Assembly (NCBI GenBank): GCA_030390025.1
Contig: CM059434.1
Location: 10,602,001-10,666,000 of the forward strand
DNA from: Squalus acanthias
Lineage: Eukaryota
Direction of reading: 5' to 3'
Length of the DNA: 64,000 nucleotides
The translations under genes were made by a program, and so were the position numbers. The notes beneath the pieces were generated by a model, which was not told the DNA's origin, searched no databases, and saw only the letters and a program-made list of their open reading frames with translations. Shown one piece after another: positions 22,327 to 40,193 of the stretch. The stretch's first letter is position 1. Each line of letters opens with the position of its first letter.

Positions 22327-22770
<444 letters not shown>

Positions 22771-22904: not shown

Positions 22905-22946
22905 TTTTCGATTATCCACTACTTGGACTTTTGCATCAGCATGGGT
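22905..22946 (-). CDS. pax6: Pax6 alternative exon 5a (THADAKVQVVDNRK)
   Basis: 42 nt, tgtag|ACC...AAA|gtaagc; matches the 14-aa 5a insert (human THADAKVQVLDNQN). Confidence 0.96.
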
Positions 22947-23316: not shown

Positions 23317-23577
<261 letters not shown>

Positions 23578-26205: not shown

Positions 26206-26215
26206 TGTTCTGCAT
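26206..26215 (-). CDS. pax6: Pax6 exon 4, coding part (ATG CAG AAC A; MQN); whole exon is 26206-26260
   Basis: ctattag|AATACG...CAACATGCAGAACA|gtaagt; 55-nt exon. Confidence 0.96.
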
Positions 26216-26567
26216 GTTGAATTGTTACACCAGTGTCCCACGTGGCTTGCTTATCGTATTCTAATAGTAATAAAAATAAGCGTTAATCAGGGTCAAGTCA
26301 CAGACAACAAGGTTTTTGGAAACATCTATCATCGCTGAGAAACTGACTCTGAAATACTCTATAAAGAGCACAATTAAAAAAAAAGAATTGCTAAAAACTA
26401 AACAAGTGTCTTTCGCAGAAGCCGCGAGCGGCCACACTGTATATATATATATGTGTGTGTGTGTGTTTAATACAAAGCAACCGCTTGCTGGCATTGAGGT
26501 TTGTTTGAAATTTTCAATTTTTAAATGCTGCCCGAATGATTGAAAGCAATAATATTTCAAAACTTGC

Positions 26568-26631
26568 CTGAAAGCTGTGTTGGCAGTCTGTGACCACAGA
26601 CATCTGTTTGTCACTAGTTAAAGTCTTCCCT
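26568..26631 (-). other. pax6: Pax6 non-coding exon 3 (64 nt) with GC donor
   Basis: ccaatag|AGGGAAGACTTTAACTAG...TTTCAG|gcaagt; both ends match human exon 3 (GGGGAAGACTTTAACTAG...TTTCAG, from memory). Confidence 0.85.
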
Positions 26632-29600
26632 CTATTGGAAAAAAAAGCAACAAAAAAAAAGTTTATTATGGTAACCTGGTGGGTGCTTTTTTTTTAAAAA
26701 AATTATATTATTGGTGCAGTTCCCTGAATTTCCCTATTTAAACCAGAATGTGCATCCGATCACTCCGCAACAATTTGACTGTTTAAAGGCATTTGGCCTT
26801 GGAACTGGGTCGCGTAAAGGTTGGACAAACATAGCAATGGGGACCGCTCCTTTTAAGACGCTGTACCTCTCTTGTGCAAAGTTCCCCCACCCCACCCCCA
26901 CCCCCCAACTCCCACCACCTATCAGATACTTTGAAGAGGGAGGTAAGAATTTCCGCCCGAATTCTATCTTACATCGCCCACAGTGAAAACACCCAATTTT
27001 ATTCAACTCAGGAACTTCGACTGAGGCCCATCCGAAAGTGCTTTGCCTCCTCGCACGGGTTTCTTGTTGTGTGCGAGAGAGTGGCCCCGATCTTATTGCT
27101 TCAGTTTCTTAATGGTGAATCTGACCAGTGCAGTCACACTGTCTCATAACGGCAGGGGCATGCGTGGAAAGTGGTCTCGTGTTTTAATACCTTGAAAATA
27201 TATTTAAACTCAGTTATTTCGTGTCTGGTTTCGGGGGGACGCGCCTTATTGTAAACCTCTGTGGTGTTTCGCCGTTGCAAATACTGTATATTATCCTGCA
27301 CTGTTTATTTTGGATAGCCCAGGAGTTCCGTGCTTTCTTTTTGGGCTCAACAACAGACTAGGCTTCCACCAAAAAAAAACTTCTTAATGTACTGTACTCT
27401 ATAAGATACTTCTGAACTTAGTTACTCTTGATTAACTTTCTTCCCTGGTCTTTAGATCTTCTTTTATGCTTAGGTATTCTGACACACGCTGTCTACCTCG
27501 CCTCAGTGCTTAAAAAGTAGTAACGGGAGGGGGTCAGAACTGATCGACAAAGACTACAGAAAGTGAACAATGCTTTCTATTCTGCTTACAGCCCAAACTC
27601 AGAGAGCAAGCCCCCCCCCCCTCTCTCCCTCCCTCCCTCCCTCCCTCCTAGGCTCCCCAGCCAGCAACACAGCGTCCAGCTAAACGCAGCGCACTCTTCA
27701 ACTCACACTCACTCAAGATAGAAGGACAAACTTTCTTCAACATCGAACAGTGACTGTGTAGAATTATTATATTTTTTTGGGGGGTTGCTTTATTTCCCCC
27801 CTCCCTCTCATTCCACCCACCACCACCGCCCCCCCCTCCCGAAATAAAACAAGTAATTTCTGTTATGAGTATCTGGAGGTAATTGTGTTGCTGGTATGGG
27901 TTGTTAAGGGTTGTAAAAAGACACAACAGCTCCGTGGGGCGCTCAATTGCGAGAAGACAATCACAATAAAGGATCTATTCAAGGGGTTTGGTAAAAGAGG
28001 GGTACAATAACGAAATAGACCAGCTTTCATTTTCTCTTTCTCGAAATACTTTATTCTGTTTGCTTTTGCCACCATAAGTATAACGCATATTGTGCCCCCC
28101 CCACCCACTATTACATCTTAAGCTAAATTCTCCAACGCTCGCCTTTCCTCCCTCCCCTCTTCTTTCTATTCATTACACACCAGCGGAAAATAATTTATAG
28201 ACTAGCTTTGTCATCTATTCCTGCACACACACACACACACCAAAAAAAATAAACTTCAAACAAACACTTTCTCTCAGCATGCAGACTTCCCTGCGTAAAT
28301 ATTTACAGCAAGGAAGGGTGACTACCTGATTACCCCAGAACTCAAGCGAGCAGGAGATACCCGGGCGTTTAACTTCTCCAACTGCAGCCAGTCCCGGAGA
28401 CTCCGAGAAAGATCATTTGTGTTTTCTCACTTTAAGCAAGGGCCGTTACATTTGCAACAATTTTCTTAAATAATAACAAAAAAAAATAAAGATTTCTTTT
28501 TTGACTGTGATGGGATTTTTTTTTCCTGCGGTATCGGAAATGCTTTCCTAATTACTCGGTTTGCAAAAAAAAAGCGATTTGTCACTTTCTGAAAAGTTCG
28601 CACGCCGTTTTATTGCCTTATCAAAATGTCTTTTTAAATTAATAATATTCATAATAAAAAGAAATCAGCAGCTGATAGCGTCCTGACATATTCCAGTGCT
28701 AGTATTTTAAGCCCACTGTTTACTATTGTCTGTTCGGTACAGTGATGAAAACAAGTGCTGAACAAGCAGTTCTCAAAGGCCCAGCCTGAGAGTCGTATCT
28801 GTATCTCCCTTTCTCTATATATAGAGATATATAGATATATATATATTAATATGTAAGCCTAACCGCGGGCGTCAAATACACCGATTGTGATCTTTCTTAT
28901 TTTGTATCTTACTGTCGATTTCGAGCCAAAATCTCACCCTTTTCCTTGGGCCTAGCCTTCCCTCAACGCTGGCCGAGGGTACATGTTATCAAGTATTGAA
29001 TTATATCTCAAAAGCACACCCGCAAATGACACAATAAACCCGCCGTTTCCTATGTCCTTTTCTGACTTTCATTTTGCTCTTTATCCTCCACATTTCTACA
29101 TTTAAAAAAAACACTGCCAACTTTTCGTGCATTTAAAAAAATGTAGAAATATTATTCCCACCTGCGCTGCTATTTCCCAGTTTCTGACTGTTAAGATGCG
29201 TGCAGTCAGTAATGGGAACACTTATACCCTTAATATGGAGAAATCTGCACTGATTTTTTTTTAAGACCATAAATTAAAAGTCTTATTTATAATAACGTGA
29301 GGATGCGGAACAGTTCGGGTGAGCGCTCATTAATTTATTATAATATCGAGTAGTTGAGGCAGATTAAATCTTACAGAGACAGATCTGTATACTTCAGCTC
29401 TTCAATGTTAAATGTCTTATTATTGCTTCTTGTTTGAAGCGGAATTTGATGTCAAATTTTCGGTCTAAATTGCGAATGCGTGTTAATATCCTCCCCAAAA
29501 ATACACATCACAGACTGATGTACTTGGCTTTCTCGCCAGGCCATGCTCGTTTTAAATGGCTATCATTATTCTTTTTTTTTAAAAAAACAAAGTTTGTAAT

Positions 29601-30594
29601 ACACTAGAATCTGGTTTGAAGCGGAGTAAGAAATATTGATCGAATGAATTCATGGAAGCCGAGCCGAGGAGAGAAGTCTCCTTTCAATTAATTAGCGTTT
29701 TAACAGGGACACATGCAGTTTTGGAGCTAACTCGCTGAGCCCATTGATTCTCGAGAAGGTAAAGCACGTTAATATCTAGATTTTTTTAAAAAAACAACCC
29801 TAACGTTTGTATAGAGTTATGATGAGTTGGAAACACTCTGTGCAAACGGCTCTAATGAATCGCCTGATTGCTTAATTCAAACTGACACTATGCATCGCCG
29901 GGTCATTGCACCTTCCTCAAACAGCGAGCTTTGGCCTAAAGTGACTTATTTTACTCTTTCTTATCATTAATAAACATCAACGACTTATAAACATGCAGAA
30001 AAAATGACGTTAGACAAGCCCACATTACAGCATCTCAAACACATTTCCAGTGACGCCTGAGTTACATTTGCCCGGGGGGTGGGGGGGTGGGGGGGAAATA
30101 AGGGGATTTTTTTAACTAAATGGTGCATCGTTCGGAAAATTATTTGTTTTCCTGTTAAAATACACGGATGCGTTGCTGCCGAATCCGATTAAAATAAATC
30201 TGTGGTCATTAATACAAGTCAAGCAGAGAGTAAACGGCTTGATGAATGGTAGATAGGAATAGAAAATAATCCACAAGTTAAAACGAGAGAATGGTCACAC
30301 AAAACGGCCGAGAATTTCGCTGAATTCCCATTGAATTTCCTAAAGATTGCCCAGCGATATATTGGCCCCCTTAAGGAGTGCACGTTTGCTCAATGCAGTA
30401 TTTCAAAATAACCTTTTCAAATGATAAAATAAATCTCGTTAAAGTGTAAAATAATGTTACACTAAATCGGAGTTAGGCAATAAATCATAGGTGGGAACTA
30501 AAGGAAACTTAGCTTTCGCTTGCGATTAAGAAATGTTAAATAAGATGCCCCAAAAGTGCAATAAATAAAATATAAGGAAAGCAAATAAACTCAC

Positions 30595-30736
30595 CTTTAT
30601 GGGGCATTCTGCGTCGCTGCCAACACGTCCTGCTAACAGTTAAGATGGGATATGACGGGCGACTTTTTTTAAGACTTGCCAGTGAATTATAGTTTCTCCA
30701 CACACACACATACACACACACAGATAGGGCAAATTC
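30595..30736 (-). other. pax6: Pax6 5'UTR exon 2 (142 nt) ending in an upstream ATG (ATGCCCCATAAAG)
   Basis: cttcgcag|GAAT...ATGCCCCATAAAG|gtgagt; human exon 2 starts GAAT and ends ATGCCTCATAAAG (from memory). Confidence 0.88.
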
Positions 30737-30888: not shown

Positions 30889-31140
30889 CTAGCTGATTGC
30901 TGATGGTGCTAGTTGTATTAATGTATGTCTGGATTCAGGAGGTGCGCTCGCCTCGCCTCGCCTCGCCTCCACTTCACTTCACTGGCCCATTAGCAGAGGG
31001 TGACCTTTGTCATCATCCGCAAGGAAAACACTTCCTCCCTGCGCCTCACCAGAGCGGGAAATGCACGTTTTCAAACCCACTAATCACTCCACACGGTTTT
31101 ATGCACCGCATGCAAATGCACACAAATAAATATCTCCTTA
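30889..31140 (-). promoter_or_regulatory. pax6: Pax6 P1 promoter and exon 1
   Basis: TGCATTTGCATG...GGAGTGATTAGTGGGTTTGAAAA...CATTTCCCGCTCTGG...GGATGATGACA...GCTAATGGGCCAGTGA...CAATCAGCTAG|gtgtgc matches human exon 1 (from memory); TSS approximate. Confidence 0.88.
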
Positions 31141-38210: not shown

Positions 38211-38450
38211 CTGAATCAAGTCGCCCTGTGATGCAGGCTGTGGTTGCCCCCAGTACAGTCGGTGGAAAAGAAACCGTGGGAGGTTGGTTTTTTTTTGGTG
38301 TCGCTTTATTTTTCACATTGGGCTGCTCGCACAGAGTTTAAATGTCACCGGGACGTTGGGACGGCTTTTCGTCCAACACAAACTTTCCCCCTTAATATCA
38401 GTGTCAGCTCGGCGCTGATTGGACCAGGCGCCTGCGTGACGCGACGACAC
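38211..38450 (-). promoter_or_regulatory. pax6: Pax6 P0 promoter and exon 0
   Basis: CCAAT box 38418-38422, TATA-like ATATTAA 38392-38398, GACATTTAAACTCTG 38332-38346 (present in mammalian exon 0, from memory), donor CAG|gtattg at 38211. Confidence 0.8.
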
Positions 38451-39910: not shown

Positions 39911-40193
39911 NNNNNNNNNNNNNNNNNNNNNNNNNNNNNNNNNNNNNNNNNNNNNNNNNNNNNNNNNNNNNNNNNNNNNNNNNNNNNNNNNNNNNNNNNN
40001 NNNNNNNNNNNNNNNNNNNNNNNNNNNNNNNNNNNNNNNNNNNNNNNNNNNNNNNNNNNNNNNNNNNNNNNNNNNNNNNNNNNNNNNNNNNNNNNNNNNN
40101 NNNNNNNNNNNNNNNNNNNNNNNNNNNNNNNNNNNNNNNNNNNNNNNNNNNNNNNNNNNNNNNNNNNNNNNNNNNNNNNNNNNNNNNNNNNNN
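39911..40193. other. Assembly gap (283 N)
   Basis: N run next to a CA/TA microsatellite. Confidence 1.

Follow-up and report, generated by a model that had tools for sequence, protein, structure and literature searches.

The upstream reading frame of the PAX6 leader in Squalus acanthias and its possible origin as an ancestral Pax6 start exon

The window analyzed here, a stretch of 64,000 nucleotides from the Squalus acanthias genome (contig CM059434.1, positions 10,602,001 to 10,666,000 of assembly GCA_030390025.1), contains PAX6 on its minus strand, and the element of concern is a short upstream open reading frame (uORF) in the leader of this gene. The paired domain, encoded by exons 5 and 6 (exon 6 at 22555..22770), matches the Pfam family PAX and the PDB entry 6pax. 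Of the 11 paired-box matches in the 3.7-Gb genome, this locus alone reaches 100%, and the best matches of the whole protein are to catsharks and other cartilaginous fishes. All features described below lie on the minus strand, and all exon boundaries are predicted except the exon 4-to-5 joint, which is seen in a contig of run X1. Exon 2 (142 nucleotides, 30595..30736) has an AG acceptor and a GT donor, placed by splice consensus and human geometry. Its upstream ATG, which has an A at -3, begins 13 coding nucleotides (30595..30607) that specify MPHK and the first base of a split codon, ending in phase 1. Exon 3 (64 nucleotides, 26568..26631) is single copy in the genome and carries the uORF stop TAA (26618..26620) at its nucleotides 12-14; the main ATG lies 95 nucleotides further along the spliced leader. 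Intron 3 (307 nucleotides, 26261..26567) is a GC-AG intron with the donor CAG/GCAAGT at 26567, and exon 4 (55 nucleotides, 26206..26260) consists of a 45-nucleotide leader and, from the main ATG at 26215, 10 coding nucleotides that end in phase 1. Exon 5 (23377..23507) starts the paired box and is in frame with both the exon 4 ATG and the exon 2 ATG.

Joining exon 2 to exon 3 yields a uORF of 8 codons, with 13 nucleotides in exon 2 and 14 in exon 3. The coordinates of the original prediction are all correct, namely the ATG at 30607-30605, the 13 nucleotides to the donor at 30595, the TAA at 26620-26618 and the 307-nucleotide GC-AG intron. The uORF is confirmed as sequence, and the exon 2-to-3 and 3-to-4 joints are predicted in Squalus acanthias. 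When exon 3 is shuffled 20000 times, the entering frame runs into a stop 14199 times, and within five codons 4247 times, so that closure by itself is unremarkable. The uORF in the 5' untranslated region of human PAX6 is reportedly the subject of Filatova et al. 2021. Unlike mere closure, the agreement with the human layout is beyond chance. The human uORF also divides into 13 and 14 nucleotides, as computed from its published coordinates (chr11:31810840-31806912, with a donor variant 13 nucleotides from the start; PMC9943669 supplement, 30 of 37 PAX6 rows used) and from the human exon 3 acceptor position (PMC7615962), which gives the 14 nucleotides in exon 3. The window carries the human letter at 7 of the 7 exon 3 positions readable from published reference alleles. 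Two abutting uORFs in exon 1 (30979..31016) start at ATG 31013 (31013-30990, 24 nucleotides, 7 codons; a further ATG stands at 31016) and ATG 30990 (30990-30979, 12 nucleotides, 3 codons) and have base 30990 in common; their lengths and one-base overlap match two human PAX6 uORFs in the PMC9943669 supplement. Exon 2 holds a further ATG at 30711, inside a TG repeat, whose 23-codon frame closes within the exon. The human peptide is presumably MPHKGGRL followed by a stop, and the human donor presumably also has the GC dinucleotide.

Conservation among relatives was assessed in DNA contigs from two related organisms, one represented by X2 and X3 (a single sample) and the other by X4; in each, an unbroken stretch covers both exon 3 and exon 4. 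The uORF TAA, the GC donor and exon 4 have no listed change in these two organisms; of the 15 other letters 10 are listed, and of the 8 gap letters 3, with the remainder presumably at a skipped repeat (26431-26476). The exon 2 ATG and its 13 coding nucleotides are unchanged in relative C. Codon 7 of the uORF changes from Arg to Thr (26625) in close relatives, and the first four codons are near-constant. A pattern scan of metagenomes for exon 3 of other vertebrates returned two loci, both unrelated.

The GC donor had been presumed weak, and this was not borne out. It matches the consensus at 8 of 9 positions and is the best of the 37 GT or GC candidates that occur from the uORF stop up to the acceptor of exon 4; the next best scores 5/9, and an alternative GT donor near exon 3 was ruled out because none exceeds that value. 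Its predicted U1 pairing (-7.4 kcal/mol) is mid-range among the eight donors of the gene, which span -4.5 to -10.7, and is better than that of three GT donors, at exons 1, 4 and 5a. The exon 3 acceptor, with 13 of 16 pyrimidines, is the joint best of seven. By these crude proxies of splice-site strength (consensus count and U1 pairing rather than a MaxEnt score), exon 3 does not have the weak splice sites of a cassette exon, and intron 3 has the near-perfect consensus, with no better donor nearby, of a GC-AG intron. The homologous exon 3-4 joint is read through in proteins of frog (P0103), chinchilla (P0143) and badger (P0282), although this does not reveal their donor dinucleotide. The GC donor is probably a compensated, working donor. 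Literature searches on PAX6 and the GC donor found no paper linking the two. A second AG stands two bases into exon 3 (26631-26630); if used as acceptor, it would fuse the uORF with the second one described below into a 36-codon uORF ending 9 nucleotides before the main ATG.

When exon 3 is skipped and exon 2 joined to exon 4, the upstream ATG instead opens a 35-residue reading frame, in frame +1, that overlaps the main ATG and ends in exon 5 (at 23468). The proposal that exon 3 holds the stop and that its loss makes the uORF overlap the main start is therefore upheld, and the accompanying claim that uORF-frameshifting leader variants cause aniridia agrees with the disease mechanism given in passages of PMC7617937 and PMC12822670. 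In these passages human PAX6 variants skip exon 3, the holder of the uORF stop, which yields an overlapping reading frame and less translation. The repressor mechanism of exon 3 skipping is thus already known from human aniridia genetics. According to a passage of PMC9934858, a mutant human minigene skips exon 3 and the wild type includes it in two cell lines. The passages on the human uORF in PMC7617937, PMC12822670, PMC9934858, PMC11062406 and PMC9943669 treat skipping as mutation rather than regulation and mention no ancestral start; the overlapping-ATG sheet of PMC9943669, judged by row order, has no PAX6 row. Exon 3 also contains a second upstream ATG (26601..26603), 14 nucleotides past the uORF stop and in weak context with C at -3. 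It opens a 23-codon frame, the main frame, which a TAA in exon 4 (26227-26225) ends 9 nucleotides 5' of the main ATG, and gene models of beaver (P0106) and rabbit (P0071) read an ATG that is equally far away.

The exon 2 ATG can also be joined directly to exon 5, and this joint is in frame. It places MPHKG before the paired box in a frame open for 175 residues through exon 7. Exon 2, with 13 coding nucleotides, and exon 4, with 10, both end in phase 1, and the human gene has the same geometry, with 13 nucleotides in exon 2 and an exon 5 that begins at c.11. Sterlet (P0285, P0287) and eel (P0324) have RefSeq models that start by joining exon 2 to exon 5. A single ATG therefore has three routes: exons 2-3-4-5 give the short uORF, exons 2-4-5 the 35-residue out-of-frame frame over the main start, and exons 2-5 a full paired domain beginning MPHKG. 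The exon 4-to-5 contig of run X1 is continuous over the start of exon 5 and, as rare forms are lost in contigs, has little bearing on exon 2-to-5 splicing. The five records of this run, whose RNA origin is a guess, include none over exon 2 or exon 3, and as the filter omits records this is no evidence either way.

A short-protein search with the sterlet start as query revealed the same residues at the start of invertebrate Pax6. MPHKG stands directly before the paired box in Pax6 of a tick, a sea spider, a spiny lobster, a midge, an acanthocephalan and a bdelloid rotifer; among the 120 proteins listed of 833 found, 11 have MPHKG in this position and 17 end in HKG. The first 14 residues of the window's exon 2 plus exon 5 are identical to those of tick P0329, sea spider P0330 and P0331 and rotifer P0383. 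A Drosophila erecta protein (P0451, a cluster member), which we take to be eyeless, starts MAHKG. These matches are of the Pax6 class, with paired-domain identities of 38-42 of 43 and 62-68 of 72 and a 99/96 branch shared with vertebrate Pax6 in a tree of 21 paired domains, which separates only Pax6 from the other classes. By chance, PHK would follow Met with a probability of about 7.5e-5, which becomes about 0.006 once the 74 different four-residue ends observed are allowed for. In its residues and its open frame, exon 2 of the window is thus like an ancestral start exon of the MPHKG type. Amphioxus Pax6 presumably begins with the same motif. Lamprey first coding exons are short, according to a passage of PMC6925180. 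A search of the ESM Atlas added nothing.

In ray-finned fishes the same ATG is used as a real start. Passages of Ravi et al. 2013 (PMC3554528) state that teleost translation can begin in exon 2. When blunt snout bream leaves out exon 3, its start shifts to exon 2 (a passage of PMC6480603). Of 325 proteins examined, 85 begin with the exon 2 extension, and in 81 of these the main Met is preceded by 19 residues; the named carriers are teleosts, sturgeons and paddlefish. The extension is therefore not teleost-specific. With exon 3 skipped, the distance from the exon 2 ATG to the main ATG is 57 nucleotides in ray-finned fishes, which is in frame, and 58 in the window, which is one base out. The exon 4 leader has 45 nucleotides in the window, 15 codons in frog P0103, 17 codons in chinchilla P0143 and badger P0282, and 51 nucleotides in human; that of ray-finned fishes has 44 by subtraction (57 - 13). 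A single one-base loss in exon 4 of the ray-finned lineage would be the simplest reading. An assembly error behind the offset was rejected, given that no exon 4 indel is listed in the relatives and that tetrapods have the same offset. The skip frame of the window agrees with the ray-finned extension at 5-8 of 14 residues, a similarity reached in 0-4 of 100000 shuffles, and the closed main frame of exon 4 agrees with frog at 7 of 15. Because the closed frame is equally similar to frog, the skip-frame similarity proves homology of DNA rather than coding use in sharks, and coding selection on the skip frame in Squalus acanthias is not supported. As a separate observation, the axolotl model P0323 has a 20-residue extension with exon 4 in the main frame and without the stop found at 26227-26225 of the window; its last three residues before the main Met are the same as in the window, which represents a third way in which the leader has turned coding.

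The exon 2 ATG is probably the start of an ancestral Pax6 start exon that was demoted to a uORF by the insertion of exons 3 and 4, with exon 3 normally included and the uORF tolerated by way of reinitiation. Exons 3 and 4 would have been inserted later between the old start and the paired box; exon 3, predicted in most transcripts, would close the old start as the 8-codon uORF, and exon 4 would provide the new start. Ribosomes that finish the short uORF would resume scanning, pass the second ATG, which only 14 nucleotides on is likely too near for reinitiation, and initiate at the main ATG 95 nucleotides on. The uORF would thus be tolerated and may shield the second upstream ATG. Loss of exon 3 alone would be harmful in sharks and tetrapods, and the one-nucleotide loss in ray-finned exon 4 would have turned this harmful skip into a 19-residue N-terminal extension. 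Supporting this interpretation are the near-constancy of the first four uORF codons beside the variable codon 7 and the aniridia variants, which show the human need for exon 3.

Several points weigh against the descent of the uORF from a start exon. The homology is carried by four residues only. The query began MPHEG, so that matches were ranked toward this start and 11 of 120 is no frequency, and the X-isoforms of RefSeq are predicted models. The proteins retrieved include none from a lamprey or an invertebrate deuterostome with an MPHKG start, and two sea urchin proteins start otherwise, so the bridge is missing. The agreement in intron position, at the first paired-box codon of both fly and vertebrate Pax6, is presumed on the invertebrate side. 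Reinitiation and shielding are deduced, and inclusion of exon 3 in Squalus acanthias is predicted only. Finally, alternative splicing of exon 3 is reported for a teleost, where the outcome is an in-frame extension (a passage of PMC6480603).

A different explanation is that exon 3 is a regulated cassette, whose skipping gives the repressive overlapping frame and lowers the PAX6 dose by tissue or stage, tuned by the GC donor. The frame produced by skipping and the human disease mechanism are as this proposal requires. However, the donor pairs better than three of the seven GT donors, wild-type human minigenes include exon 3 in both cell lines, half-dose PAX6 is pathogenic, fishes skip the exon in frame and without repression, and the enrichment of GC-AG introns stated in PMC7242645, in the parts consulted, is for alternative 5' sites. 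A regulated cassette is accordingly improbable, and the present data do not support a regulated dosage switch in Squalus acanthias. Of the original prediction, what stands is the skip frame, its place in human disease and the conservation of the element with human; what is not supported is normal dosage control, ancient or otherwise, and the prediction overlooked the in-frame exon 2-to-5 route, the match with invertebrate starts, the second ATG of exon 3 and the two ATGs of exon 1.

It might also be that the uORF is of vertebrate origin, that its four-residue match to invertebrates is coincidental and that the leader is kept as an RNA or DNA signal. The match is indeed short and came from a query selected for its start, and the leader DNA is conserved regardless of frame (closed exon 4 frame 7/15 versus frog, skip frame 5-8/14). 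Against this stand the exact residues at the exact distance to the paired box in an open frame, at odds of about 0.006 by chance, and the use of the same ATG as a real start by ray-finned fishes, and coincidence is very improbable. In sharks and tetrapods, exon 2 may also still work as an alternative first coding exon: some cells would skip exons 3 and 4 together and so make a full-length PAX6 with the ancestral start, from an ATG that is well placed for it. The 175-residue open frame, the annotated exon 2-to-5 starts of sterlet and eel, and the identity of MPHK in the window and protostomes, which suggests selection on the peptide, all favor this possibility. Yet no named protein of a shark or tetrapod among the 441 tallied begins in this way, although cluster representatives hide most isoforms, and the uORF role alone could preserve the ATG and its donor, so that continued coding use in these groups is considered unlikely. 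The broader proposal, that the aniridia uORF is a bilaterian Pax6 start exon still in use, with splicing selecting among a harmless uORF, a repressor and a full-length PAX6 with the ancestral N-terminus, is slightly less unlikely but is put forward as doubtful.

The dose of PAX6 is critical, and aniridia variants are concentrated in its leader. Descent of the uORF from the old start would account for the conservation of a four-codon piece of a 'non-coding' exon, and it predicts an in-frame human exon 2-to-5 transcript (13 versus 10 nucleotides, both phase 1). If true, this history would be a clear example of exon gain reducing a start codon to a uORF and of a one-base change, in ray-finned fishes, making it a start again, and the exon 2-to-5 transcript might be induced to bypass lesions of exons 3 and 4. 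If the start exon were still in use, joint skipping of exons 3 and 4 would produce an isoform that sharks and humans make naturally, and could serve to restore PAX6 to patients with exon 3 splicing or exon 4 start variants. The element itself is known and the evolutionary reading is the new part, although it may be in print; it is absent from the passages of the cited papers, of which PMC3554528 and PMC6925180 were the only two searched for the invertebrate motif, in the parts available (0 matches). A literature search for the PAX6 uORF, shark and teleost together found nothing.

Other features of the locus are more loosely connected with this history. Exon 5a (42 nucleotides, 22905..22946) is placed by splice consensus, and the homeodomain exons lie at about 13.2-11.2 kb of the window. 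About 140 nucleotides 5' of exon 5a, a tandem sequence (23125-23068) resembles the acceptor and first codons of that exon (22984-22929); it has an additional base, lacks a matching donor and could be a decayed duplicate or a decoy acceptor. A candidate upstream first exon of P0 type (38345-38211), with predicted boundaries, has the donor CAG/GTATTG and a start-stop ATG at 38318. A long near-perfect inverted repeat (31327-31265, arms of about 40 nucleotides by eye) just 5' of the exon 1 promoter region is possibly a small non-autonomous transposon, and 283 N occupy 39911-40193, upstream of PAX6. In run X1, a 204-nucleotide contig (depth 21, versus 72 for exon 4-to-5) joins the end of exon 4 (26235-26206) to a 174-nucleotide AG/GT-bounded exon on another contig (G000:C11:88800701-88800528; pieces L002, L004 and L005), about 5.6 kb upstream of a rhodopsin-family seven-transmembrane reading frame (Pfam 7tm_1), which presumably resembles GPR19. 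No second copy of exon 4 was found in the genome and no paper was found on this join, which may reflect trans-splicing, a library chimera or a rearranged allele and occurs in one run only.

The leader may be compared with several known systems. Two-uORF reinitiation leaders of the ATF4/GCN4 type likewise have a short first uORF followed by a second, nearer upstream ATG; they differ in that the 14-nucleotide spacing of PAX6 gives no room for a stress-dependent choice, and there is no evidence of eIF2-alpha control. Like the GC-AG introns of PMC7242645, whose main text, in the parts consulted, leaves PAX6 unmentioned and states an enrichment for alternative 5' sites, intron 3 combines a GC donor with an otherwise full consensus, but it has no alternative donor nearby. 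With the extension of teleosts (passages of PMC3554528 and PMC6480603) the window has in common the ATG, the skip of exon 3 and similar exon 4 residues, and Ravi et al. 2013, in the passages of PMC3554528 concerned, call that extension teleost-specific, whereas sturgeon and paddlefish models carry it too. The Pax6 or eyeless proteins of protostomes (P0329, P0330, P0332, P0348, P0383, P0451) have MPHKG or MAHKG, the five residues that would directly precede the paired box if exon 2 of the window were joined to exon 5; in those proteins the motif forms all or part of their own start, whereas two exons lie between motif and paired box in the window. A further counterpart is the human PAX6 uORF, in which the ATG also lies 13 nucleotides before the exon 2 donor, the stop also occupies nucleotides 12-14 of exon 3, exon 3 skipping also gives an out-of-frame overlapping frame, and two exon 1 uORFs of 24 and 12 nucleotides are also present. 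The human exon 3 (c.-128 to c.-52) and exon 4 leader are longer, at 77 and 51 nucleotides against 64 and 45, and the frame of the second exon 3 ATG, closed 9 nucleotides before the main start in the window, runs over the main start in the beaver model P0106.

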